64,000 nucleotides of DNA, taken from contig JBHGAY010000025.1 of the NCBI GenBank assembly GCA_041946735.1, forward strand, positions 1 through 64,000. The letters are read 5' to 3'. Shown piece after piece: positions 11,825 to 38,779 of the stretch. The notes under the pieces were generated by a model. That model was given only the letters and a program-made list of their open reading frames with translations. It made no database searches and had not been told where the DNA came from. Numbering within the stretch: position 1 is the stretch's first letter; each line of letters begins with the position of its first letter. A program made the translations under genes and the position numbers. The DNA comes from Candidatus Eiseniibacteriota bacterium (GTDB taxonomy: Bacteria; Eisenbacteria; RBG-16-71-46; CAIMUX01; VGJL01).

Positions 11825-12595
11825 TCAGACCAGGAAGAACAGGTCCGGCGCGAAGGCGAGCGCCTCGTCGCTCAGGAACGCCTCGCCGTACTTCCTGCCG
11901 ATCCGGATGCCGTAGTAGGCGCGGACCGTGTCGAGCAGGGGCAGGATCGAGTTTTCCGCCTTCCAGATCTTCATCTGCGATTCGTACGCCTGAATCGCCC
12001 GGTGCACGTCGTCCATCACCTCGCTGACGTCGACGACCATCGTCGGCATCATGTCCTTCGGCACCATGTAATAGAAGAGCCGCCGCACGTCGTGGGCCGG
12101 AATCTCCGGCATCACGTTGCGGAAGCGCGCGAGCTTCAGGCCGTCGCGGACGAGCTGCCCCGTCGCGAAGTGATCGGAGTTCGCGGTTCCATCGTGATGA
12201 TCGAAGCGATTGGTGTGGTACGGCGCGAAGACGATCGAAGGCCGGTGCTCGCGCACGACGCGGGCGATCGTGAGCCTGCCCTGCGGACTGTTGAAGACCT
12301 CGGTGTCGGGAAAGTCGAGGATCCGTCCGGAAGAACCGATCACTTCGTTCGCCGCGGCGAACTCGCGCGCGCGGGTCTCGCGATCTCCGTAGGTGCCCTT
12401 CTCGCCGCCGGTCAGCGCCACCGACAGAATCCGGCGTCCCGAGCGGATCAGGCGGATCATCGTCCCCGCGACCGTCATCTCGGCGTCGTCCGGATGCGGG
12501 CTGAAGACGAGAACGTCGAACGTCCCCTGCGAGGACGGATCTTGCGGACGACTCACGAACACCTCCCGGCCGGTCCCGGCCACGTGACGGGACAT
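11825..12595 (-). CDS. PIG-L/LmbE family deacetylase, BshB1-like
   Basis: 'SPHPDDAE', 'LTGGEKGT', 'DH..TGQLV', 'YGEAF'. Confidence 0.88.
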   Translation of the reverse strand: MSRHVAGTGREVFVSRPQDPSSQGTFDVLVFSPHPDDAEMTVAGTMIRLIRSGRRILSVALTGGEKGTYGDRETRAREFAAANEVIGSSGRILDFPDTEVFNSPQGRLTIARVVREHRPSIVFAPYHTNRFDHHDGTANSDHFATGQLVRDGLKLARFRNVMPEIPAHDVRRLFYYMVPKDMMPTMVVDVSEVMDDVHRAIQAYESQMKIWKAENSILPLLDTVRAYYGIRIGRKYGEAFLSDEALAFAPDLFFLV

Positions 12596-12670
12596 GGTAA
12601 CCGTTGCCGGCGCCGATCGGCCAGCGGGAGGATCGGGCGGGTGGCGGCCCTCGGGGTCCCCGATCAGAGC

Positions 12671-13387
12671 TCAGAACTGCACGTTGGGCTGGATCGCGAG
12701 CTTCTGGCGAAGCGCCCGCTCGATCAGGACGATGCAGTTCTCGATCCCGATACCGGCGGTGTTCAGGCAGAGGTCGTAGGAGAGAGGATCGTCCGGCGAG
12801 CGGGAGAAGTAGGTGTGGAAGAAGTGCCTCCTCTCCTCGTCGACCTTCTGCACGAGCCGCTCCGCCTCCTCGAACGAAACCTGCCGCAGACGGCTGATCG
12901 TCTCGACTCTCTGCGCGAACGGGGCGACGATCCGTACGTGCAGGCTGCGAGCGGGATCGAGCAGGAAATTCGCGCCCCGGCCGAGGATCACGGCATGTCC
13001 GTGCATCGCGATCGTTCCCAGCACGCGGGCGAGGGTGTGCAGGTAGTCCCCTTTCGAGAGGAACTTCCCGTGGAGGAGCCCCTCGATCCAGAGACGCACC
13101 GAGGAGAGATCATGCTCGTCGAGGGAGGCGGCGATCGCTTCCTGGAACTTCGACTGCTCGACGATGGCGTTCACGATTTCGCGGTCGAAGATCTGGTACC
13201 CGAGCGAAGCCGCGAGGCGGTGGGCGACCTCGCCTCCGCCCGAGCCGAACGCGCGGGAAATGGTGATGACGGGACGAAGCGGCGTCGGGCGCTCCGTCCG
13301 GCTCTCCGCGGCGGCCCTCCGGCGCAGGTCCGCCTCCAGCTCCCATCGCCGGATTTGGCGGTCTATGATCTGTTCGATTCCGGTCAT
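12671..13387 (-). CDS. Cytidylate kinase-like family protein
   Basis: 'VITISRAFGSGGGEVA', 'VILGRGANF', 'DDPLSYDLCLNT'. Confidence 0.9.
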   Translation of the reverse strand: MTGIEQIIDRQIRRWELEADLRRRAAAESRTERPTPLRPVITISRAFGSGGGEVAHRLAASLGYQIFDREIVNAIVEQSKFQEAIAASLDEHDLSSVRLWIEGLLHGKFLSKGDYLHTLARVLGTIAMHGHAVILGRGANFLLDPARSLHVRIVAPFAQRVETISRLRQVSFEEAERLVQKVDEERRHFFHTYFSRSPDDPLSYDLCLNTAGIGIENCIVLIERALRQKLAIQPNVQF

Positions 13388-13588
13388 GGCCCTACCCCTC
13401 AGATTGCACGAGTCCGATGCGTCGCGGCAACGAGAGTACCACCGGGACGGCAACGCCGTACAGCGGAGCGAACGCAGGAGCGAACGAAGGACGGAACGAA
13501 AGAGGGAACGAAGCGTGCGGCAGGTAGGGGCGGAGGACAGAAGAAGGTGGAGAAGGAGGAGAAGGCGGCGAAGGAGGCGCGGAGCAGG

Positions 13589-14779
13589 ATGCGGAGCCTG
13601 ATCGTCCATGGCGGAGCCTGGCAGATTCCGGACGAGGAGATCGGCGCGCATCGGGAGGGACTGCGCCGGGCGCTCGCTCGCGGCGTCGCGCTCCTCCGCG
13701 CGGGCCGTCCCGCGCTCGACGTCGTCGTGGAGACCGTCGCCGTGCTCGAGGACGATCCGACCTTCGACGCCGGGCGAGGCTCCGTCCTGAACCTGGACGG
13801 GCGGATCGAGATGGACGCAGCCGTGATGGAAGGGCGCGGCCGCCGCGCCGGCGCCTGCGCGTGCGTGACCGACGTGGCCCATCCGATCCGGCTCGCCCGC
13901 GCGATCCTCGAAGATGGCCGGGCCGTCCTGCTCGCCGGCGAAGGCGCTTCGCGCTTCGCGCGCGCCTGCGGCATCCCGCCCTGCTCGTTCGAGGACCTGC
14001 TCGTGCCCCGGGAGGTGCGCCGCAAGGAGGAGATCGACCGGCTCCGCGCCTACGAGACGCGCATGGCGTTCGACGGCAGCCTGCGGGCGCCGGGCGAGAA
14101 AGGCGAGAGGGGCGAGAAGGGCCAGAAGGGCGGGAAGGGCGAGAGGGCCGGGAAGGGCGAGAGAGGCGCAAGAGGCGAGGGGCATCCGAGAGGGACGGTG
14201 GGAGCCGTCTGCTTCGACGCGGCCGGAGAGATCGCCGCCGCGACGTCCACGGGGGGCGCACCGGACACGTGGCCCGGGCGGGTCGGTGACAGTCCGATCC
14301 TGGGCGCCGGCACGTGGGCGGAGGAAGGCGCGGGAGGCGCGAGCGCGACCGGCTGGGGCGAGGCGATCCTGCGGGACCTCCTCGCCTATCGCACGGTCCA
14401 GGCGATCGACAGCGTCACGATCCTCTGGCGCGAGGGGGCCGGGCACGCAGGCGGATCGAGCGAGCCGGCTCGTCGCGCCCCCGCCGAGTCGCCTCGTGCG
14501 GCTGCCGCGGCCGCCGCTGCTCCCGCCGCTGCCACCCCCCTCGACCCCAACGCGCCGATCACCTGGGGGCCGGTCGTCTCCGGCACGCCCGGCTCGCCGG
14601 CCGCGCGCGCGGCGCTCTCGGCGATCGAGAGCTTCGCTCGTGGAGTCCGCGGGGTCGGCGGCGTCATCCTGCTCGGCCCCGACGGGACCCCGGGGTTCGC
14701 GTTCAACACCCCGCGTATGGCGCGCGGGTACTGGGTGGAGGGGATGGGAGAGCCTTGGATCGACACGGAGCCGGCCTGA
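13589..14779 (+). CDS. Isoaspartyl peptidase/L-asparaginase (Ntn hydrolase)
   Basis: 'IVHGGA', 'LEDDPTFDAGRGS', nucleophile 'GTVGAV', 'ATSTGG', 'GRVGDSP', 'SATGWGE'. Confidence 0.93.
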   Translation: MRSLIVHGGAWQIPDEEIGAHREGLRRALARGVALLRAGRPALDVVVETVAVLEDDPTFDAGRGSVLNLDGRIEMDAAVMEGRGRRAGACACVTDVAHPIRLARAILEDGRAVLLAGEGASRFARACGIPPCSFEDLLVPREVRRKEEIDRLRAYETRMAFDGSLRAPGEKGERGEKGQKGGKGERAGKGERGARGEGHPRGTVGAVCFDAAGEIAAATSTGGAPDTWPGRVGDSPILGAGTWAEEGAGGASATGWGEAILRDLLAYRTVQAIDSVTILWREGAGHAGGSSEPARRAPAESPRAAAAAAAAPAAATPLDPNAPITWGPVVSGTPGSPAARAALSAIESFARGVRGVGGVILLGPDGTPGFAFNTPRMARGYWVEGMGEPWIDTEPA

Positions 14780-14801
14780 GTAGGAGAGGAGGGATCACGA
14801 G

Positions 14802-15101
14802 ATGCCGACGTTCGTGCTCATGACGAAGCTCGCCCCGGAAGTCTCCCGCGAGGTACGCCACCGGGAGGAGCTGGGGCAGCAATGGAAGGCCGCCGTCGAG
14901 GAGAAGTGCCCCGACGTGCGCTGGATCTCCCACTTCGCGCTCCTCGGTCCCTACGACTTCATGGACATCTTCGAAGCGAAGAGCGAGGAGAGCGCGGCGA
15001 AGGTCTCGATGATCTCCCGGGCGCGCGGTGCGGTCACGGCGGAATCGTGGACCGCGATCCCGTACGCCCGGTTCCTCGACATCAACGAGGAGATCGCCTG
15101 A
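14802..15101 (+). CDS. GYD domain protein
   Basis: 99 aa with 'LLGPYDFMDIFEA'; good RBS. Confidence 0.85.
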   Translation: MPTFVLMTKLAPEVSREVRHREELGQQWKAAVEEKCPDVRWISHFALLGPYDFMDIFEAKSEESAAKVSMISRARGAVTAESWTAIPYARFLDINEEIA

Positions 15102-15222
15102 GAGGAAGGCGGATCGCGCAGGCCGCGATCGCCCGAGAGGCGGACCTCCGCCGGCGAATCCGGATCGCCCGAGCGGGCTCGTTCGAGCCGGATCACTCTC
15201 GGGCCCGCTCACTCGAGCCTGC

Positions 15223-16263
15223 TCACTCGAGCCGGATCAGCTTGCGCTGCACCGTCCCCTCGCTCGTCGTGAGCCGGGCGAAGAGGATTCCGGGACCGCC
15301 GGCCTCCGCGCCGCGCGCAGCATCGAAGCGCACCGTGTGTTCGCCGGGAGCGCGCGAGCCGTCGACGAACGTGGCGATTCTCCGTCCCTGGACGTCGAAC
15401 AGCTCCAGCCGGATCGGATCGCGCGACGCGGCCGGCGAGACGGCGAAGACGATCTCCGTCGAGACGCGGAAGGGGTTGGGTTGCGCGCCGAGAATCGCCG
15501 AGGCGAACGCCGTCACCGGCTCGCCGACGCCCATCGCCGGAGGCAGCTCCTGGAGGCGGGCGCCCTGCACGATCTCTAGATCCCCCTCGTGCTCCTGCAA
15601 GAAGGCGATCACCTTCAGATGGTCGCTGTGCCAGGACGGCTCCATCGTGACGTAGAAGTCGAAGACCACGTCGTCCCCCGGACCGGAGAAGGCGACGGGC
15701 CGCTCGACGATCTCGCGCGTGACGCGGTCGAGGAGGAATCCTTCCGACCAGACGCTGTCCTCGAGAACGAAGAAGTAAGCGCGGGGATCATCGAACACCG
15801 CGGGATCGAGGAGGCGCAAGGTGGAATGCACGCGCACGCTCGCGTCTCCGATCTGATAGATCCCCTGGATCATGACGGGGCTCATCCCGCCCGTCTCGGC
15901 GATCCGCAGGTCGATCTTCTCCCCGAGCAGGGCCGCTGTGCCTTCACAGCCATCGATCCCTTGGTAGTAGCGGCTGCCGTCGATCCGCACGTAGGGCCAC
16001 AGGTAGATGCCGTACCAGGCAGCGCGATGCTGCGCCTCCGGGATCGCGAGCGCATCGCACCAGTGCTCGTCGAACCAGAGAATGCGATCGCTTCCGTACG
16101 TCGCCTCGACCATCTGCAACCCGCACCGGGTGTCCCAGCAGGGAGGTCACCCGAAGTAGTCGGCGAAGTGCTCGAGAACGAGAAGCTTCGGAACGCCCGC
16201 GGAGCAGAGCGAGATCGACAGCGCAGTCAGGACGGCCATGGAGACGATGACCTTGCGGAGCAT
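15223..16263 (-). CDS. Secreted Omp28/thioredoxin-like protein with FlgD-Ig-like tail; probable selenoprotein (Sec39)
   Basis: ATG 16263 after AAAGGGGAG; signal peptide; 'LVLEHFADYFG-TGA-PPC' continues in frame into ORF 15223..16119; 'YGIYLWPYVRIDG', 'VIAFLQ', 'QPNPF', 'LFDVQGRRI'. Confidence 0.8.
16108..16148 (-). promoter_or_regulatory. SECIS-like hairpin immediately 3' of the in-frame TGA
   Basis: mRNA GACC-UCC-CUGC-UGGGAC-ACCCG-GUG-CGGGU-U-GCAG-AU-GGUC gives nested stems with a G-initiated apical loop about 20 nt after UGA. Confidence 0.6.
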
Positions 16264-16413
16264 CGCTCCCCCTTTCTGTCGTGTCGGGGCGGGGCGGAAG
16301 ATGGAGTCCCCGCCGCTCGTCCACGGCGGGGAATATTCTCCTCTCTACCGTCCAGAAGGGCAATCCGGACGGGAGGGGCGGGAAGGGCGGAAAGGGCGGA
16401 AAGGCCGGGGCGA

Positions 16414-16932
16414 TCAGGCCGGAGGCGCGTGCGGAGGGGCGAGCGCGGCGCGGCCCTCTTCGGCGTCGATCGGATCCTCGACATGGACGATCCCGCCTTC
16501 GAGGATCTCGGCGCGCAGACCGCCCCGATGGATGAGGCCTCGCAAGACCTCTTTGCCGGTCATGCCGGCGAGATGGGCGCACGGCTCGCAGAGGCGGATC
16601 CCGCGGGCCCGGACCGCTCCGATCCGGAACTCGCGCCCCACCAGGTCATTGAGCGCGATGCCGCGCGTCACGAGATTCCGGCGGCTTTCGCCGGCGCCGA
16701 GCGCGAAGCCGTAGTCGCGTGCAAGCGCCTCGATCGCCTCGGCCTCGATCAGCGTCAACTCGTCCTCGGGACGGTGCGCTCCCGTGCCTGTCCGCACGCG
16801 GGCGAAATGCCGGTCCCCCTCGATCCCCGCCCCCGCCACGAGGCGCGCTTCGACGACCGGGTGAGGCGGCCCGCCCTGCTCGGCGATGATGTAGATCCCC
16901 TCGACCTGTCCTCTTCCCTTTCCTTGCTGCAT
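16414..16932 (-). CDS. MOSC domain protein
   Basis: 'GIEGDR', 'RRNLVTRGIALNDL', 'LCEPCAHL', 'RGGLRAEILEGG'. Confidence 0.92.
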   Translation of the reverse strand: MQQGKGRGQVEGIYIIAEQGGPPHPVVEARLVAGAGIEGDRHFARVRTGTGAHRPEDELTLIEAEAIEALARDYGFALGAGESRRNLVTRGIALNDLVGREFRIGAVRARGIRLCEPCAHLAGMTGKEVLRGLIHRGGLRAEILEGGIVHVEDPIDAEEGRAALAPPHAPPA

Positions 16933-16993
16933 CGGCGCTCCTGAATCCCGGCCGGGTGTAGTCTGCCTCGTTCTCTGGCCCTTGTCCCGAATG

Positions 16994-19558
16994 TCAACGG
17001 CGTCGCTGCTGCTGCTCCAGGCGGCGGCGGAGCTGCGCCGCGAGATCGACCGGCAGCGGCGTCACGATTCGCGGCGGCAGCTTCTCGGGAGGACGCGACT
17101 CGGCCGCCACCGCATGCTTGCGCGTCATCTTCGCCTGCTCCGCCTCGACCCGTGCCCGCCGCGCCTCGTCGACCGGCGCCCGGGGGACGTAGTCGGGCTT
17201 GCCGAGGAGCGCGTGGAGCAGGACGAGCGCCGCCTCCTTGTCGGGGATCCGCCCCTTCCCCATCACGTCGGGATCCTGCTGAGACTGCGGCGGCAGCGGC
17301 GCGCCGACGCACGACGGACAGCCGTCCTCGCACGGGCAGGAGTGGATCAGCTCGGCAGCCGCTTCGAGGATCTCCTCGATCATCCCGTACGCCTTCTGCG
17401 CGAATCCCAGTCCGCCCGGGTACTTGTCGTACAGGAAGACGGCGGGCACTCCGACGTTCTTCGAGTCGACCGCCGTCCCGAGATCGAGGGGATCGCACAT
17501 GGCGAAGAGCGACACGACGTCCGGAAGGACGTTCGCGATCCCCCAGAGTCCCTCGGCCGGAATCCTGCCGTACCGCGTGACCTTCGTCAACGCCTCGAGC
17601 GAAGGGGCGATCCAGGTGCCAACCGTCTCGAGCGACTGGGTCGGAAGATCGACGTTGCCGTAGCCGATCGAGTCACGACTGCCGAACTTGATCTTCTTGA
17701 ACATCGTCACCTTCGTGTGCGCGTTCAGATCTCCGAAGGCGACCGGGCTTTCGTTCACCCGCTTCTCCATCTCGGTGCGAACGATCTCGATGTGGCTGTC
17801 GCTGACCGCCTGCGTGTAGTAGTCCGCGTCGGCGCGGTGCACGTAGGCGACCTTTTCCGACGTGTCGAGCCGGTCGACGAAGTAGGTTTCGGCATCGTGC
17901 ATGTAGATCGCCTGCGGATGGACCTGCGGGAACGCCGAGGGCTCGTCGATCGTGCCGATCACCCGGTTGCCGTCCGGACGGCCGGTCTCGGTGATCGTGT
18001 AGACATTCTCGGCGGCGTTGCGCAGCGAGACCTGCGCGGCCGGATATCCTTCCTTGGCGTAGTACCAGCGCCCGCGCACCTCCGAGACCTCGCCATGCTC
18101 TTGCAGGAGATCGAGGATGGCTGGAGCGAACTCCCCCCAATCGCGCTCCTCCTCGCGGCGCAACGGAAGCTCGAAGACCGCGCAGCGCAGATGAGAGAGC
18201 AGGATGTGCGCGTTCTGGGGATCGACGACCGCGTTCTCGGGGGAGCGTCCGAAGAAATACTCGGGATGGCGCATCAGGTACTGATCGATCGGCAGGTTGT
18301 GTCCGACGAGGACGGCCACTGACTCCTCCTCGCGGCGTCCCGCCCGCCCGGCCTGCTGCCAGGTCGAAGCAATCGTTCCGGGAAACCCGACGAGGATCGC
18401 GGCGTCGAGCGAGCCGACATCGATTCCCAGCTCGAGCGCGTTCGTCGAGATCACCCCGAGCAGCTCCCCTTCGAACAGCGCCTTCTCGATCGCCCGGCGC
18501 TCCTCCGGAAGGTATCCGCCGCGGTACGCCCGCACCTTCTTCGCCACGCCCCCGCCCTCGCGCCGCAGCTCCTCCTGGCAATAGCGGAGCAGCACTTCCG
18601 TCAGCAGGCGAGAGCGGACGAAGGTGATCGTCTGGTAGCCCGCGCGCAAGAGCGAGACGAAGAGGTCGCGCGCCTCGAGGTTCGAGGAGCGCCGCTCGAG
18701 CCCCGCCGGATCGATCCGCGGAGGATTCCAGAACAGGAAGTGCTTGCGTCCGCGAGGAGAGCCGTCCTGATCGAGGACGACGAACTCCCGCCCCGAAAGC
18801 CGCTGCGCAAGCTCGCCTGGGTTCGCGATCGTCGCCGAGGAGAGGATGAGCTGCGGGCGGCTGCCATAGTGCTCCGCAATGCGCAGGAGGCGGCGCAGCA
18901 CGTTCGCGGTGTGCGAGCCGAAGATGCCGCGGTAGACGTGCACCTCGTCGGCGACGACGTAGGAAAGGCGGCTGAAGAAGTCGGCCCAGCGCGCGTGGTT
19001 CGGCAGGATGCCGCTGTGCAGCATGTCGGGATTGGTGAGCAGGATCTGGGCGCGTTCGCGAAGCTGCGTCCGCAAGTTGCTCGGAGTGTCGCCGTCGTAC
19101 GTGCCGGCGAGGAAGGAGAACGGGCCTTCCGGCTCCCCGCCGATCTCCTCGCCCCGTGACTGGGCGTTCTGGAAACGGCGAAGCGTGCGCAGCTGGTCCT
19201 GCGCGAGCGCCTTCGTGGGGAAGAGGTAGAGCGCGCGCGTCTCCGGATGCGTCGCTATCGTCTCGAGGACCGGCACGTTGTAGCAGAGCGTCTTGCCGCT
19301 CGCCGTCCCGGTGACGAGGATCACGTCCTTCCCTTCGCGGATCCGGTCGAGCGCGGCCGCCTGGTGCGTATACAGATCCTCGATTCCGGCGCGCGCGAGC
19401 GCTTCTCGCATCGCAGGGAGCAGCGGGCGCGCCGGAGAGGCGGTGCGAGCGGGGCGCGGCGGAACGTCGTGGACGTGGACCGCCTGCCCGCTGCGCGCGG
19501 CGAGCAGCAGAACGCGGCCGAGAAGATCCTCTCCGGCCGGGAGATGTCGTCGCCTCAC
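16994..19558 (-). CDS. DEAD/DEAH-box helicase with DUF1998/Zn-binding C-terminus (MrfA/YprA family)
   Basis: 'TGTASGKT', 'PTKALAQDQ', 'DEVH', 'SATIAN', 'QQAGRAGRR', 'CPCEDGCPSCV'; GTGA overlap with the upstream stop. Confidence 0.93.
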   Translation of the reverse strand: MRRRHLPAGEDLLGRVLLLAARSGQAVHVHDVPPRPARTASPARPLLPAMREALARAGIEDLYTHQAAALDRIREGKDVILVTGTASGKTLCYNVPVLETIATHPETRALYLFPTKALAQDQLRTLRRFQNAQSRGEEIGGEPEGPFSFLAGTYDGDTPSNLRTQLRERAQILLTNPDMLHSGILPNHARWADFFSRLSYVVADEVHVYRGIFGSHTANVLRRLLRIAEHYGSRPQLILSSATIANPGELAQRLSGREFVVLDQDGSPRGRKHFLFWNPPRIDPAGLERRSSNLEARDLFVSLLRAGYQTITFVRSRLLTEVLLRYCQEELRREGGGVAKKVRAYRGGYLPEERRAIEKALFEGELLGVISTNALELGIDVGSLDAAILVGFPGTIASTWQQAGRAGRREEESVAVLVGHNLPIDQYLMRHPEYFFGRSPENAVVDPQNAHILLSHLRCAVFELPLRREEERDWGEFAPAILDLLQEHGEVSEVRGRWYYAKEGYPAAQVSLRNAAENVYTITETGRPDGNRVIGTIDEPSAFPQVHPQAIYMHDAETYFVDRLDTSEKVAYVHRADADYYTQAVSDSHIEIVRTEMEKRVNESPVAFGDLNAHTKVTMFKKIKFGSRDSIGYGNVDLPTQSLETVGTWIAPSLEALTKVTRYGRIPAEGLWGIANVLPDVVSLFAMCDPLDLGTAVDSKNVGVPAVFLYDKYPGGLGFAQKAYGMIEEILEAAAELIHSCPCEDGCPSCVGAPLPPQSQQDPDVMGKGRIPDKEAALVLLHALLGKPDYVPRAPVDEARRARVEAEQAKMTRKHAVAAESRPPEKLPPRIVTPLPVDLAAQLRRRLEQQQRRR

Positions 19559-20259
19559 GGCTGCTCCTCCTCCTCGGGAAGGGCGAGAGCGAGATACAGC
19601 TCCGCCAGGGTGATCAGGTCGTCGCGGTTGTGACGCAGGATCGGCTCGAGCCAGTACGGATCTCCATCGCGCACCCAGCGGTGATATGCGTCCGGGACCT
19701 CGCGGCCGCCAAGATCGCCCGCCCGCCATCTTCCGCAGACGCGACGTTCGAGCGTCTGGAGACGGCAATCGGGGAAGACGCCGCGAAATTGCCTGCGCGC
19801 GACGTGAAGAAGATCGAGGTGCTCGCGCGGCGCGGGCTTCGGCATCCTGTAGAAGGCGTAGCGGAGCCTCAGGCACGGGACGTCGAAGCTCTTGCCGTTG
19901 AACGTCACCCAGGTGGGGGCCGGAGCGTAGTCGGTGGCGAAGAGACGCAGCGCTTCCTCCTCTCCTCCATAGTCCCGAGCGAGAAGCTGGACGAGATCCG
20001 CTTCGCGCCCTTCGCTCGGGATCAACATTCCGACCAGGAAGAGGGGACGGCCGACGAAGCCGAGTGTTTCGAGGTCGAGGAACAGGTGTCCTGGCGGAAG
20101 CGGCCCACCCGCGCCGGGTAGCCGGACATGATGCCGGAGGACGCCGAGCCCTTCGGTCGGCGTCTCCCAACGCGCCTTCGGAAATCGTTCCAGGAGCCAG
20201 CGCTCCATCTCGGTGATGCTCCCGCCGTTTGTTTCGCGCCAGCCCATCGAAGTCCCCAT
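19555..20259 (-). CDS. RNase H-like exonuclease (MrfB/YprB family)
   Basis: 'FLDLETLG', 'VTFNGKSFDVP', 'HLDLLH', 'HNRDDL'. Confidence 0.9.
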   Translation of the reverse strand: MGTSMGWRETNGGSITEMERWLLERFPKARWETPTEGLGVLRHHVRLPGAGGPLPPGHLFLDLETLGFVGRPLFLVGMLIPSEGREADLVQLLARDYGGEEEALRLFATDYAPAPTWVTFNGKSFDVPCLRLRYAFYRMPKPAPREHLDLLHVARRQFRGVFPDCRLQTLERRVCGRWRAGDLGGREVPDAYHRWVRDGDPYWLEPILRHNRDDLITLAELYLALALPEEEEQP

Positions 20260-20579
20260 GCCCGACGAACGGCCGGATTCTAGGAGAGGGCAGGACGTCG
20301 CGCAAGAGCGCGAAAAGCCGCTCGCCTCGCATACCGCTCGTGATGCCCTTCTTCATGACTCCAAGCTGCGAAAGCGCGTATCGCGACCGTCATGACTTGG
20401 GAATCACGCAACGGAATTCGCGATGCGAGAGCGGGCCGACGCGACGTGAAAACGAGGAAGGCGAGCAAGCGTCGCGTTGTCCTCCTTGAAGCGTTCCGCT
20501 AGCTTGCTGGCGTGCCACCGTTCCGCGGCTTCCTCCATGGGAGCCGCCTCATGACTGCGTGATCTGCATGGAGGCATGC

Positions 20580-33574: not shown

Positions 33575-36500
33575 TCACCTCAGCAACACCAGCTTCTCCG
33601 TGCGGCTCGCGCTGCCCCCCTGCAGTCGGATCAAGTACACGCCCGAGCCGACGTCGCGGCCCTGGTCGTCTCGTCCGTCCCATACCTCTTCAGCCGCTCC
33701 GCCGGCGAACGAGCCCTGCCGAAGGATGCGCACGCGCCGTCCCTGCAGGTCGATGATCTCGAGCCGGAGCGAAGAGGCGCCCGGAGACTCGAAGCGGATT
33801 GCCGTCCTCGGATTGAAGGGATTCGGGATCGCGCCGATCAGCCGAAGCTCGAGCGCGCGAACGTTCACGTCGATCGTCGGACTGACCAGGATCTCGCGGT
33901 CGAAGCCGTCGAGACCGACGATGCGGTAGCTCTGCCGGCCCGGAGCGGCGGGATCGCGATACGAGTAGCTGCCATCCGATCCGAAGTCGCTCGCGACGCC
34001 CGAGGCGCGAAGCTCCCAGCCGCCCATCGCATCGCGGCGCTCGATCCGGAAGACCTCGACCGGCTCCTGGGTGCTCCAGATCAGCAGCGCCGCGCCTGCC
34101 TCTCCGGACGCCTCGGCCGCCAGCGTCCGGACCGGAGTGATCACCGCCGCGTCCTGCCTTCCCGTGTTGCGCGCGTCGTGGCGGAACGAGGGCCAGGGAT
34201 TGGCCGCCATGGCCGCCGCCAGATCGGCCGGGAAGTTCACGTTGTCGATATCGAGGATCGTCACCGCAGGCTGCTGCTCGGCCTGGATCAGGAGATTCGG
34301 GTGGCCGTCCCGGTCGACGTCCCAGGCGGCGAGCCCATGCTGGATGCGCCCGCCCGTGAAATACGGGAAGCCGATCATCATCGTGCCGTCGCCGTCCAGG
34401 GCGTAGACGACTCCTCCGTTGTCGCCGACGACGATCTCCGCCGCCAGGTCCGAATCGAGGTTCATCAGAATCGGAGAGCCGATCTTCGTGCTCGTGACAG
34501 GGGCTACCCGGACCGGGAACCCGGGGAGAACCGTCCCCTCCGTCGCGTCGATCGCGGTCACGCGCCCTTGCCCGACGCCGAGCGCGACGTCGAGGTCTCC
34601 GTCGCCGTCGATGTCCCCAAGAGCCGGCGTGGTCTCCGGCCATCGAGTCGGAAGCTGGTCGATCGGACGCTTGGGGAACTTCGCGATCAGCTGCTTCGAG
34701 CCCGGCTCATAGCCGAATCCCCAGAGATAGTTGCGCGTCGCCAGGTAGATGTCGTACTGCAGGTCGTTGTCGACGTCGGCGATCGAGACCGAGCTGTTTT
34801 GCGCCTTGAAGTCCCCGACGAGGCCGCTCTCGAGCTGCTGGCTCGCTAGGACCGAGCCGTCGCCGTCGATGACATAGATGGCGGACGGACTCCCGGTCAT
34901 ATTCCGCTCGAGGCCGAGCACGATCTCTTCCCTGTCGTCTCCGTCCAGGTCGGCCACGGCCGGCGTCCCATAGGTCAGGGGCCAATCGTTCGGACCGGGC
35001 CACGTGCCCGGATCGGACGGGTTCCCGCTTCCGAGATAGACGAGCTTGCCGTCGCTATTGCTGCTCTTCACCGGCGTTCCGTCGTGATTCCACGCGAAGA
35101 TGCATCCGCGGCTGTTCAAGACGATCTCGAACTGCGGATCGGAGTCGATGTTCGCGATCACCGGCGAGGAGAGCATGTAGTTGCTGTACCCGGCGGCCTT
35201 CGACCACAACAACGTCCCGTCGTTGCGCCAGACGCGGATCTGCGCCGTCCCATGACCGCTGTCGTCGTAGCGCGAGACCGCGACGATCTCCATATTGCCG
35301 TCCCTGTCGATGTCCGCCACCGCCGGCTTGTTCCAGTAGGCGGGCACGCCCGGGGCCCAGATGCCGGGAGTAGAGACGACGTGATCGCCGTCCATCACCT
35401 CGAGACCATCCGCCTTCATCGCATAGACCGTCTGCCCCGCGATCACCACTTCGAACGGGTTCCGCTCCCCTTCGCGGATCAAGTTCTCGACGGTCGGGCA
35501 GCCGAGCTGCGGCTCGACGATCGTGAAAGGCCACCCGGACAGCATGCCCGGGCTCGTCGTGGCTGCGACGACGTTCGAGAAGGCGCTCTGATTGCCGGAC
35601 GAATCGACCGCCGCCACGCGGTAGTAGTAGCGCGAGAGGCCTGCCAGGCCGCCGTCGCGGTAGTACTCCATCCCGCGGACCAGGCCGGGCTGCGCCCTCT
35701 CGAAGTGGACCTGATCCTGCGAGCGTTCGAGCGCGTAGCCGTCCACGTCGCCTCCGGACGACTTGGTCCAGGTGAGCACGATCGCGTCCTTCGTCGCCTT
35801 CGGCTGCGCGGTGTCCGGGAAGCTCGGGGCCGATGGCGAGACGAAATCGACGGTCTTCGACAGGAACACGAAGGCGTCGTCCCGCTTCGAGCGCACCTCG
35901 AGCTTCATCTTCAGGATCGCCGCGTTCTGCACCTCGAACTGGAACGGAGGATTCGCGGTGACGAGGTCCCCCGCCTCGCCGTCGTCGACCGAGGAGGTGT
36001 CGTATCCGGCAACGATCGTCCCGCCCTGCACCGGCGTCAGAATCGCGCGCAGATCCCCCACGCTCCCGCTTCCGAGATCCCGCAGCACCGGGCGCCAGCT
36101 GATCCGCTCCCCGTTCTCCGGGATGCCGTCGCCGTCGCCGCTCACCTCCGAGCGCACGCTCCCCTCGACCCGGAAGACGGGTCTCAGGACGGGCAGCGCG
36201 AGACGGTAGGTGCGCGCCTGGCCGGCCTGCGGCGTGATCGTGATCCTCGCGACGAGCGGCACGCGGTCGCCGTTCTCGAGGAAGCTCTTCGGTACCGGCG
36301 AGGAGGAGCGGATCCGGAAGGCGGTGACCTGGTCGGTCGTGTTCGCCGCGACCGATCCCACATCCTCCGATGCGTCCTGGACCTCGAAGTACCCCGCCAC
36401 TGATGGCGGCTCCAGCCCGAGGCTGAGGGTCAGAGGACCGGAGGCGCCGTTCCCGCCGTTGGCAAGCGAGACCCTCAAGCCGACCGTTTCCCCCTGATCG

Positions 36501-38779
36501 AAGACGCCGTCGCCGTTGCCCGCCGTCTGTCCTCCGGGCGAATCGTCGATCGCGAGGGCGGTCGCAGCGACCGCCTCGCCCGACGGCTTCTCGACGTTGC
36601 GGGAGAAGGTGCCGGGGATCGACGTGAATCCGGTGGCGGTCACGATGAAGTTGCCGGTCGACGTCGCCTGGAACGGGACGACCGCCTGTCCATTGGCGTT
36701 CGTCGTCGCGATCGCGTAGGTGTCGTTCGGCTTGTACGCGCAGACCTGGACGTCCGGCACCCCCTGTCCGTTCCTGCGGACGTTGATCGTCAAGGAGGAC
36801 TCGCCGAGCGTGTAACTGGTCTGCTGCGCGCTGACCTCGAGAGGCTTCGGCGTTCCGAGCCACATATGGATCTGAGGGTCCCCGAGCAGGATCAGGCTGT
36901 AGCTCAGGAAGCGCCGGTAGCTGTCGAAGCCGGTGTTGCCGGCCATCTGCTCCGCGATCGTGTGATAGTAGGCGTCGCCCAGATATGGCGCCTTGTCGTG
37001 GAAGATCTTTGTGTAGGTCGACTCCATGAAGCCGGTCGCGGCGGCAGGAAAGTCGAGGTTCGTGGAGCCGATGTAGCAGATGACTCCCCCGTTCTCGGCG
37101 AAGAGCAGCGCCTCGGCGACGCAGTCGTAGTCGATCGCCGCGGAGTTGCAGTTGATCGAGTAGAGCACGCCGATCTTGTCGCCGTTCGTGACGGCGCGCG
37201 CATCCGACGTCAGGAGGCGGCCCGCTCCGTCGAAGCCGTCGATCGTCCCGATCGACATGCGGTCTCGATCCCCATGGCCGACGTGGTGGATCAGCCCCAT
37301 CCCTTCGTTGATCTTGTCGATGACCGACGACTTCGTCTCGGGTTGCGCGTTCGGGCGGCCGTTCTGGCGCCAGTACTCATACCACTCGTACAGCTCGACC
37401 TTCTCCAGAGGCGGCACGCGGCCCTCGTCGATCGCCTGGTCGATGATCCCGATCGTCCGGACCGCGTCCCCGGCGCCGTCGAGAGAGACGCAGGTGTCGC
37501 AGCCGCTCCCGCACGCCCCACAGCGGGGAAGGAGCGACCGCTTCCATTCCGCGTCGAAGAGCACCTCGCCGAGGAACAGCACTCGATCGAGATACCCCTG
37601 TGTATTGGGGCTCTTGATGTAGGTGTTGACGTACTTCTGCAGGAACTGCAGGAGCTGCGTCGCGTCGGAGGCCGGGATGCGGCCGACATACAGCTCCGCG
37701 TCGAAGTCGACGTCGTCCCCGATCGGATTCGGCGGATTCGAGCCTCGGACCGGCTCTCCGAAGACCGCGTCGCCGTCGGCATTCCAGTTGCCGTCGAGGC
37801 AGGCGTAGTAGAGGTCGGTGATGATGTCGACACCGGCCGGGACATTCCACGAGTAGGACTTCGCGAGCCGCATCGGAACCTGGGCCGGTCCGCCGGCGAT
37901 CAGCACGTACTGGACTCCCCAGTACTGGTAGGCGGCCTGCAGGAAGTGACGGATCCTCTCCTGGTCATCGACTCCGTTGGGATAGTTCTCCCGGATCCAC
38001 TCGACCGTCCGGATGACGGTCGGAGTGCCGGACTGGTTCTTCCAGTCGGCGAGGAGCTGCACGGAGGGGGCCAGGGCCTCGGTCGTGATGATCAGGTACT
38101 CGACCGGCGCGCTCGACAGCGCCGGGAGATCGCTGACCGCCTCGCGGAGCGCCTGGCTTCTTCCTTCCCCCTGGAAGTCCCGGCGCCAGAGGTCCTCCGC
38201 GCCCGATCGCAGGACCTTCAGTGGACGCGGCGCGGTCGCGTCGCCCTCCAGATGGACGATCAGCCGGCCCGACTCGAGCAGGGACAGCTGTGCCCCCTCC
38301 TCGATGGCGACGACCGGGTAGACGGCGAAGTGGGCGAAGACCTGCCCGCGCCGCATGGAGGTCGACAGGTAGCGGACACGCGAGGCGGGATAGGAGCCGG
38401 AGGCGTACGCGTCGTCCCGCAGGGCGACCTGTCGCGGGCCCCCGTCGGGCGTCGGAGCGTCCTGGAGCGCCGTCGCGAGGATCCCCTGGGCCGGGCGCTC
38501 CGACGTCGAGGCGCCCGCCAGCTCCCAGGAGGCGACCTTCGTGCCGTCAGGGATCGGCACCCGCACCAGATGGGCCGGGAGGTCCGGCTCCCCGGGCTCC
38601 GCCAGATGGAGGAGGGCGTCACTCACGGTGCATTCGATCTCCCCGCTCGCGTCGGAGACGAGGGAGACCTGACCCCAGGACCAACCGAGGAGGACGTCCT
38701 CGGGGTCGGCCGCGCTCGCGGCCGCGGGGACGACCAGGGCAAGGAGCGGGATCAGCCAGAGAGCGTGTCGAGCGCGCAT
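33575..38779 (-). CDS. Large secreted C25 (gingipain-family) cysteine peptidase with Ig/FN3 domains, FG-GAP repeats and FlgD-Ig tail
   Basis: Signal peptide; propeptide 'PGEPDLP'; 'EYLIIT', 'TDLYYACLDG', 'LYVGRIP', catalytic 'GHG' and 'INCN', 'LLGDP'; 'ADIDRDG'/'ADLDGD' repeats; 'PNPFNP...WDGRDDQG..VGSGVY'. Confidence 0.93.
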   Translation of the reverse strand: MRARHALWLIPLLALVVPAAASAADPEDVLLGWSWGQVSLVSDASGEIECTVSDALLHLAEPGEPDLPAHLVRVPIPDGTKVASWELAGASTSERPAQGILATALQDAPTPDGGPRQVALRDDAYASGSYPASRVRYLSTSMRRGQVFAHFAVYPVVAIEEGAQLSLLESGRLIVHLEGDATAPRPLKVLRSGAEDLWRRDFQGEGRSQALREAVSDLPALSSAPVEYLIITTEALAPSVQLLADWKNQSGTPTVIRTVEWIRENYPNGVDDQERIRHFLQAAYQYWGVQYVLIAGGPAQVPMRLAKSYSWNVPAGVDIITDLYYACLDGNWNADGDAVFGEPVRGSNPPNPIGDDVDFDAELYVGRIPASDATQLLQFLQKYVNTYIKSPNTQGYLDRVLFLGEVLFDAEWKRSLLPRCGACGSGCDTCVSLDGAGDAVRTIGIIDQAIDEGRVPPLEKVELYEWYEYWRQNGRPNAQPETKSSVIDKINEGMGLIHHVGHGDRDRMSIGTIDGFDGAGRLLTSDARAVTNGDKIGVLYSINCNSAAIDYDCVAEALLFAENGGVICYIGSTNLDFPAAATGFMESTYTKIFHDKAPYLGDAYYHTIAEQMAGNTGFDSYRRFLSYSLILLGDPQIHMWLGTPKPLEVSAQQTSYTLGESSLTINVRRNGQGVPDVQVCAYKPNDTYAIATTNANGQAVVPFQATSTGNFIVTATGFTSIPGTFSRNVEKPSGEAVAATALAIDDSPGGQTAGNGDGVFDQGETVGLRVSLANGGNGASGPLTLSLGLEPPSVAGYFEVQDASEDVGSVAANTTDQVTAFRIRSSSPVPKSFLENGDRVPLVARITITPQAGQARTYRLALPVLRPVFRVEGSVRSEVSGDGDGIPENGERISWRPVLRDLGSGSVGDLRAILTPVQGGTIVAGYDTSSVDDGEAGDLVTANPPFQFEVQNAAILKMKLEVRSKRDDAFVFLSKTVDFVSPSAPSFPDTAQPKATKDAIVLTWTKSSGGDVDGYALERSQDQVHFERAQPGLVRGMEYYRDGGLAGLSRYYYRVAAVDSSGNQSAFSNVVAATTSPGMLSGWPFTIVEPQLGCPTVENLIREGERNPFEVVIAGQTVYAMKADGLEVMDGDHVVSTPGIWAPGVPAYWNKPAVADIDRDGNMEIVAVSRYDDSGHGTAQIRVWRNDGTLLWSKAAGYSNYMLSSPVIANIDSDPQFEIVLNSRGCIFAWNHDGTPVKSSNSDGKLVYLGSGNPSDPGTWPGPNDWPLTYGTPAVADLDGDDREEIVLGLERNMTGSPSAIYVIDGDGSVLASQQLESGLVGDFKAQNSSVSIADVDNDLQYDIYLATRNYLWGFGYEPGSKQLIAKFPKRPIDQLPTRWPETTPALGDIDGDGDLDVALGVGQGRVTAIDATEGTVLPGFPVRVAPVTSTKIGSPILMNLDSDLAAEIVVGDNGGVVYALDGDGTMMIGFPYFTGGRIQHGLAAWDVDRDGHPNLLIQAEQQPAVTILDIDNVNFPADLAAAMAANPWPSFRHDARNTGRQDAAVITPVRTLAAEASGEAGAALLIWSTQEPVEVFRIERRDAMGGWELRASGVASDFGSDGSYSYRDPAAPGRQSYRIVGLDGFDREILVSPTIDVNVRALELRLIGAIPNPFNPRTAIRFESPGASSLRLEIIDLQGRRVRILRQGSFAGGAAEEVWDGRDDQGRDVGSGVYLIRLQGGSASRTEKLVLLR

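Follow-up and report, generated by a model that had tools for sequence, protein, structure and literature searches.

Does an in-frame TGA end a protein, or does it hide the true beginning of one? The question is raised by a locus in the first 64,000 nucleotides of contig JBHGAY010000025.1 of a Candidatus Eiseniibacteriota bacterium (this whole stretch is called the window; it is contig C18 of the genome). On its reverse strand a frame of 346 codons runs from ATG 16263 to a TGA stop at 15223-15225 and is open except for a sole internal TGA at 16147-16149, and an earlier note on this DNA had suggested that the frame encodes a secreted thioredoxin-like selenoprotein. We conclude with high confidence, from comparative sequence evidence, that the internal TGA, codon 39, is decoded as selenocysteine (Sec or U). 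The wider statement, that this codon is read as Sec by SelA, SelB, SelD and tRNA-Sec and that the product is an exported thioredoxin-fold oxidoreductase, is likely to be correct as a whole. The frame and its TGA, the conservation of the TGA in one alignment column, the cysteine of TGA-free relatives, a conserved hairpin downstream, and the genes for Sec insertion and for a type IX secretion system (T9SS) are seen directly in the genomes compared. The features of the locus are the following.

15223..16263, reverse strand: the whole predicted selenoprotein gene, 346 codons with one internal TGA, then the stop TGA at 15223-15225
16266..16273, reverse strand: Shine-Dalgarno-like purine-rich AGGGGGAG directly 5' of the ATG, read from the sequence, a putative ribosome-binding site
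16198..16263, reverse strand: predicted signal peptide for the Sec translocon, residues 1-22 (MLRK, hydrophobic core, CSA/GVP), called by inspection
16147..16149, reverse strand: in-frame TGA, the predicted selenocysteine U39, first residue of U-P-P-C42, from column conservation
16119..16131, reverse strand: hairpin ACCCG-GUG-CGGGU resembling a selenocysteine insertion sequence (SECIS), loop at 16124-16126, encoding T45-R46-C47-G48-L49, from covariation and RNAalifold
15889..16194, reverse strand: thioredoxin-fold domain, residues 24-125, with U39xxC42 at the start of helix 1 and an invariant P90, from model and profile
15544..15888, reverse strand: Omp28-like beta-sandwich, residues 126-240, from structure alignment (VIA-align)
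15226..15498, reverse strand: C-terminal beta-sandwich, residues 256-346, a FlgD-Ig-like T9SS type A sorting domain by TIGR04183 and profile
15223..16119, reverse strand: truncated open reading frame (ORF) of the stop-to-stop listing, start TTG 16119, 298 residues

Reading through the TGA gives MLRKVIVSMAVLTALSISLCSA/GVPKLLVLEHFADYFG-U-PP-C, i.e., ...LVLEHFADYFG-U-PP-C..., with the motif U39-P-P-C42, exactly the peptide that the earlier note had derived, and homologues align over residues 1 to 346 of this read-through protein. The extension of the frame from the listed start at 16119 to ATG 16263 with one TGA was likewise borne out by the sequence, as were the purine-rich AGGGGGAG at 16273-16266 and the signal peptide behind it, the latter called by inspection, without a predictor program. 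The junction A-x-A/G-V-P-[KR] is common to all seven paralogs in the genome, and in the structure model residues 2-15 of the signal-peptide region form an N-terminal helix. The real gene is truncated by annotation, as had been anticipated: the public protein collection holds a 296-residue call (P0002) starting at ATG 16113, and in a search of 1.84 billion public representatives, 94 of the 150 best matches begin just after the Sec column. A word-index homologue search of public proteins returned just the gene's own truncated call and one partial relative, and is uninformative because Sec forms are truncated in that collection.

The TGA is no assembly slip, since an independent sequencing run from another study (X2) carries it identically, in a contig that covers 16082-16345 without a difference. 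A possible source run (X1) spans the whole stretch, and a raw-read run (X7) contributes just two reads at its edge. Run X2 departs from the window at position 16010, where its forward strand reads T instead of C, a strain variant that turns codon 85 from GGC (Gly) into GAC (Asp).

The TGA codon and the selenocysteine machinery

The genome (4.9 Mb, 95% complete) encodes selB (349 bits), selA (479 bits), selD (388 bits) and tRNA-Sec (72 bits), all above their curated cut-offs, and ARAGORN reports a tRNA-SeC with the anticodon TCA. The selD gene itself contains one in-frame TGA (...CAG-U-ASK...; C2:108941-109867, reverse strand). Five further Sec paralogs of the gene, approximately 35% identical to it, are present in the same genome with exactly one TGA each, together with a seventh copy that has none. 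When read through, all six Sec copies have U at the same column within the pattern U-x-x-C-x-x-x-R-C-G-L, and the seventh copy has C-Q-Y-C in place of UxxC.

A profile of the seven N-terminal domains, searched against 206 genomes of the phylum, gave 226 matches in 47 of them, including 34/34 genomes of the window's own order. Among the 150 matches listed, 111 contain one TGA, in one case along with a TAG, and 39 contain none, by hand count. The position of the codon was checked at 30 loci of relatives, where the shared column holds U in 28 and Cys in two, and in 43 further copies, where it holds U in six and Cys in 37. Thus, the TGA is at the same column in 40/40 TGA-bearing copies checked (34 of them from relatives) and at no other column in any, and Cys occupies that column in 37/37 TGA-free copies checked. 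Public representatives agree: 56 of the 150 best cover the column, with Cys in 54, Ala in one and Ser in one, so the placement of the TGA at the first Cys of a CxxC motif, made earlier from a single sequence, holds across the family. The stop at 15223-15225 of this mRNA is a TGA too and lies where homologues also end, so TGA has its ordinary stop function in this organism. The alignment of UGA with Cys, a stem-loop with G in its loop, and the presence of selA, selB, selD and tRNA-Sec are the features of a selenoprotein dependent on SelB and a SECIS.

The hairpin downstream of the UGA

All six Sec paralogs contain a 13-nucleotide element, (G/A)CCCG-GUG-CGGG(C/U), which begins 16 nucleotides past the UGA and whose GUG loop begins 20 nucleotides past it; in selD, a long SECIS stem bears a GGA apical loop that also starts 20 nucleotides past the UGA. 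In an ungapped alignment (A3) of 34 Sec copies, the inner hairpin is kept in 34/34, with 96.5% of cells paired (18-62% in controls with slid partners). Compensatory changes are found in three of its five pairs, 0/500 shuffles reach the covariation score, and RNAalifold unaided finds exactly this 5-bp hairpin. The closing pair is A-U in the gene's own copy versus G-C in the others, and in its nearest relative on the tree (L044) the innermost G-C is replaced by A-U. In three copies with Ala in place of Gly, a synonymous change at the third position of the Ala codon upstream maintains the pair. Across the four codons of the hairpin, entropy at the third position is 0-0.6 bit, versus 1.3-1.8 bits in the flanking ones, and the loop begins with G in all 34 copies, at the third position of an Arg, Gln or Trp codon. 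In the long ORFs of the genome, CGG makes up approximately 25% of Arg codons and GGG approximately 22% of Gly codons, rough figures that include shadow ORFs.

The consensus taken here for bacterial SECIS elements is that of bSECISearch. Like the SECIS of the E. coli fdhF type, the element is a hairpin just 3' of the UGA, with a G-initiated apical loop approximately 20 nucleotides downstream. Unlike it, the conserved part here comprises 5 bp and a 3-nucleotide loop only, is near-invariant across a paralogous family and doubles as A/T-R-C-G codons. A search of positions 14700-17100 with Rfam gave two chance-level matches only, with E ~0.5, far under the gathering scores.

Several observations weigh against, or qualify, the hairpin as evidence for a SECIS. 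It is very short, and much of its stem is forced by the residues A-R-C-G. The single-sequence minimum free energy of 16149-16105 is -16 kcal/mol, with a z-score of -0.52, and 56/200 shuffles fold as well. That fold has the outer stem of the earlier note and an apical loop ACA; since it is no better than shuffles, the hairpin as then drawn is no evidence by itself. What stands of that proposal is the inner 13 nucleotides, conserved and G-initiated, with the loop 20 nucleotides downstream of the UGA; the outer hairpin of this copy does not stand. Finally, four TGA-free relatives with A-R-C-A (L047, L076, L077 and L078) keep a hairpin, and we therefore rejected the idea that it is exclusive to Sec forms. 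In these Cys forms (GCGCG-CUG-CGCGC in L047, L076 and L077) the hairpin is at the SECIS position and its first loop base is not G. It may be a fossil SECIS left after a Sec-to-Cys change, or a by-product of the encoded residues.

Fold, predicted export and relatives of the protein

The AlphaFold2 model (m3c17c04300eb, built from a 77-row alignment, with a confidence score, pLDDT, of 92.4) has the thioredoxin topology beta-alpha-beta-alpha-beta-beta-alpha: strand 28-33, helix 40-56 (U39xxC42 at its N-terminal end), strand 61-66, helix 75-84, strands 91-94 and 98-101, and helix 105-124. Behind it come a beta-sandwich (130-240), a short linker of low confidence and a second beta-sandwich (256-344). 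P90, invariant in the 77 rows, is the conserved Pro before strand 3 and aligns with that of thioredoxin 1fo5. With this topology, this Pro and the motif at the N-terminus of helix 1, the modelled protein has the make-up of a thioredoxin-fold oxidoreductase. The best solved match is HBP35, the 35-kDa hemin-binding protein of P. gingivalis (5Y1A; Foldseek E-value 8.9e-13; in VIA-align Z 23.5 and a root-mean-square deviation of 2.3 A over 214 residues, model 22-245), followed by 2AXO (Z 17.9) and the Omp28 domain 2R2C (Z 11.6 over model 72-243). The family profile finds thioredoxin 1fo5 at 6.5e-8 and HBP35 at 1.7e-7, with U aligned to the leading Cys of the CGYC in HBP35. The thioredoxin and Omp28-like folds named in the earlier note are thus supported by the model, by Foldseek and by structure alignment.

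For the FlgD-Ig tail named there the picture is mixed. With the family profile, FlgD Ig domains are found at 4.4e-7, and three long paralogs are above the FlgD_ig (PF13860) threshold, with 29-45 bits; the gene's own copy has no Pfam match. Pfam Omp28 (PF11551) is matched by 5/7 paralogs (best E-value 1.7e-9), not by the gene's copy, and one full-length paralog scores 34.2 bits, just short of the gathering score of 34.9.

In the 50 rows with aligned columns, Cys47, which the hairpin encodes within R-C-G, and Cys106 are both present in 38 and both absent in 12, and one alone is found in none; by inspection, L067 probably retains the second Cys only. To judge from the sequence alignment, a structural disulfide of these two residues probably links helix 1 to helix 3, and the hairpin's Cys codon would then be doubly constrained.

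Export to the surface by the type IX system is predicted from the tail and the genome content, and redox function from the fold and motif. The C-terminal domain (CTD) scores 23.7 bits over residues 262-343 with TIGR04183 (27 bits in the genome scan) versus a cut-off of 23, which marginally places the protein among T9SS cargo. The genome has 147 TIGR04183 domains. Of the T9SS components, SprA and PorU were searched for, and both the translocon SprA (TIGR04189, 492 bits, with its neighbours) and the sortase PorU (NF033707, 596 bits) are present. The window has another large ORF (33581-38113, reverse strand) that ends in a T9SS-type CTD (33587-33826, 33 bits) and also has stretches resembling the PorU sortase model.

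On this reading, SelB charged with Sec-tRNA would bind the 13-nucleotide hairpin and deliver Sec to the ribosome, and the second TGA (15223), which has no such hairpin, would terminate translation. The Sec translocon would carry the preprotein over the inner membrane, and its signal peptide would be cut off behind A22; the CTD would then take it through the SprA translocon, and PorU would remove the CTD and either anchor or release the protein. At the surface, the U39-x-x-C42 pair at the start of helix 1 would act on extracellular substrates by exchange of selenenylsulfide and disulfide bonds, as HBP35 does in vitro through its CxxC, with Cys47 and Cys106 probably in a structural disulfide.

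The nearest curated family is NF045500, "Omp28-related selenoprotein". The gene's protein scores 12.2 bits with this model and the best paralog 53.9 bits, below the curated cut-off of 200, and UxxC in a thioredoxin-like fold is common to both. In a table of a 2026 review (PMC13188914), NF045500 is given as the same family as "Hypothetical protein GOS_C", described by Zhang and Gladyshev in 2008 (PMC2398784) as a UxxC family of thioredoxin-like fold with 74 Sec and 312 Cys sequences. As GOS_C is presented in these sources, the likeness extends to the thioredoxin-like fold, the UxxC, the Cys homologues and a bacterial SECIS just past the UGA. The paralogs match the NF045500 model at an E-value of 2.6e-14 with the TGA inside the match, so that the U columns may correspond. 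Unlike that curated family, outside which it falls, the gene's branch is expanded in Eisenbacteria and has a T9SS-type tail and an extra Cys pair. HBP35 shares the thioredoxin fold with a redox motif in the same place, the beta-sandwich and a T9SS CTD. It differs in being only 14% identical, in having Cys instead of Sec and in belonging to another phylum; the runs containing the stretch (soil, industrial waste) indicate that this organism is not host-associated. HBP35 is described as having two-cysteine-dependent thioredoxin activity, hemin binding, support of growth at low hemin and a C-terminal domain for surface attachment (PMC2907840), and its secretion as Por-dependent (PMC3120885). The likeness drawn here is one of fold and motif; hemin binding is a feature of HBP35. 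Omp28 (PF11551; 2R2C, the P. gingivalis Omp28 domain) and DUF1223 (2AXO) share the beta-sandwich and the thioredoxin-plus-sandwich arrangement; unlike Omp28, the gene's copy has no Pfam match at E up to 1.

This kind of protein, a UxxC thioredoxin-fold selenoprotein related to Omp28, has been known since 2008 and is already catalogued (NF045500, i.e., GOS_C; HBP35-like architecture), and by sequence comparison the gene is a divergent member of it, on a branch that is lineage-expanded in Eisenbacteria and lies outside the curated model. Among the papers searched, we found none joining Eisenbacteria with selenocysteine or Omp28 with a selenoprotein, and no relevant paper joining selenoproteins with type IX secretion, although supplements could list such proteins. 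The words Omp28, secreted, signal peptide and T9SS are absent from the main text of the 2026 review, and the deep-Sep and BSepDB papers, supplements aside, do not mention Omp28, T9SS, GOS_C or NF045500.

The history of the family was followed on a quick maximum-likelihood tree of 77 N-terminal domains (40 Sec, 37 Cys) with an arbitrary root. The gene's copy falls in a mostly-Sec half (35 Sec, 7 Cys), with L044 as its nearest relative. The tree requires at least eight changes between Sec and Cys, three of them forced by well-supported branches; their direction is undefined because the root is arbitrary. A second small Sec clade (U-G-Y-C-P-R-A-A-S-G) is nested among Cys forms in the other half. 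Its five members (L102-L106, from genomes G039, G040, G019, G034 and G023) have the motif TATW-U-GYCPRAASGIE, a different sequence 3' of the UGA (GCCGCUUCCGGGA) and no GUG hairpin at the equivalent place, and may represent an independent Cys-to-Sec switch with its own SECIS. One relative has up to 13 family matches, with Sec and Cys forms together. A related-locus search with the single protein found two Eisenbacteria relatives and many matches to the CTD only.

Four of the Sec paralogs and the Cys paralog are longer than the gene's product (approximately 640-680 residues), with an extra region of approximately 350 residues between the Omp28-like domain and the CTD in which no Pfam family passes the threshold (one copy has a weak DUF4159). 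These long copies are at C23:404-2431, C24:2113-4146, C24:..1922 (cut by the contig end), C8:74508-76559 and C12:233459-235489, two of them in tandem on C24. Relatives have arrays, e.g., five copies within G025:C10:35385-48573.

Around the gene, a promoter and terminator scan found nothing beyond shuffle expectation. A 9-nucleotide tandem repeat (16370-16409, 4.4 copies) lies inside the 730-nucleotide gap 5' of the gene, and a 14-nucleotide repeat (15198-15233, 2.6 copies, GCTCGAGTGAGC twice) overlaps the stop codon, so that the TGA stop is duplicated in frame-independent copies. Across that gap, on the same strand, is a DEAD/Helicase_C/MZB (MrfA-like) helicase gene (16994-20356, reverse strand), and a convergent gene (12002-14779, forward strand) encodes an Asparaginase_2 protein, whose ORF start is probably over-extended since the domain covers only residues 533-803 of 925. 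No functional link of either neighbour to the selenoprotein was seen.

Alternative explanations and significance

Apart from the hairpin, the points that weigh against the proposed reading concern mostly the gene's own copy. It sits on a long branch (1.35 versus a median of 0.4), its score with NF045500 is low, its protein has no Pfam family at E up to 1, and its CTD score is barely above the TIGR04183 cut-off. There is no RNA run among the sequencing runs containing the stretch that would speak for expression, and the evidence for the Cys47-Cys106 disulfide is solely the co-occurrence of the two residues. Selenium incorporation, expression and secretion are themselves predictions from sequence and model, and we know of no reductant for a surface thiol enzyme.

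The alternative that survives best accepts the selenoprotein and gives it another main role than surface disulfide exchange: the protein may serve mainly to bind heme, a metal or a compound of selenium or sulfur, or it may be periplasmic. HBP35, the closest solved structure, is described as binding hemin and supporting growth at low hemin (PMC2907840), the CTD score of the gene's copy is marginal, and the cell exterior is oxidising and has no obvious reductant. However, U-x-x-C, an invariant P90 of the cis-Pro type and the thioredoxin topology make up the catalytic set of thiol oxidoreductases, the same source ascribes a two-cysteine-dependent thioredoxin activity to HBP35 as well, and the presence of 147 CTD proteins, of SprA and of PorU speaks for a tail in use. 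We consider this alternative unlikely, though far from negligible.

The other two explanations concern the codon itself, and each seems to us extremely improbable. If the TGA were a real stop, the true gene would be the downstream ORF (from ATG 16113 or TTG 16119), or the locus would be a pseudogene. The downstream ORF is what the ORF listing and the public gene call give, and the single-sequence hairpin is unremarkable, but a protein made from that ORF would have no signal peptide, no strand 1 and no active site. Moreover, the 38 upstream codons are conserved in frame across paralogs and relatives (signal peptide, VP[KR]V.V.E.FG), and one TGA kept in 111 of the 150 listed relatives, at the same column wherever its position was checked, is not what any decay would produce. 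As for TGA being read as Trp, Gly or Cys through a changed code or near-cognate suppression, the inserted residue is not determinable from sequence alone, but TGA works as a stop at 15223-15225 of the same mRNA, the Sec machinery is complete and includes a selD with its own Sec TGA, the aligned residue in TGA-free relatives is Cys and not Trp or Gly, and a conserved hairpin lies at SECIS distance.

With Sec at codon 39 as the preferred reading, a broader and more tentative proposal can be made, which we regard as conceivable and by no means probable. Eisenbacteria may have a T9SS-exported surface "selenoproteome" in which this family is the most expanded, and the 13-nucleotide dual-coding element Ala-Arg-Cys-Gly, i.e., GCCCG-GUG-CGGGC, may be a minimal SECIS for SelB binding and at the same time encode the Cys of the structural disulfide, letting the gene duplicate freely and switch repeatedly between Sec and Cys.

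The investigation of this locus bears on how the proteins of the phylum are read. That the gene is real and truncated by annotation is a matter of fact, its Sec decoding is very likely, and its export and redox function are predicted. Annotation in the phylum systematically strips the signal peptide and the active site from the whole family, whose proteins resemble cytoplasmic ones without an assigned function because so many of the best public representatives start past the Sec codon; with the corrected reading, this one genome gains six selenoproteins. Little attention is paid to exported selenoproteins of bacteria, and the near-invariant mini-hairpin is a compact candidate for a SelB recognition element, open to test. 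A thioredoxin-fold Sec enzyme at the surface of a soil bacterium, if export proceeds as predicted, raises the question of its extracellular substrates.

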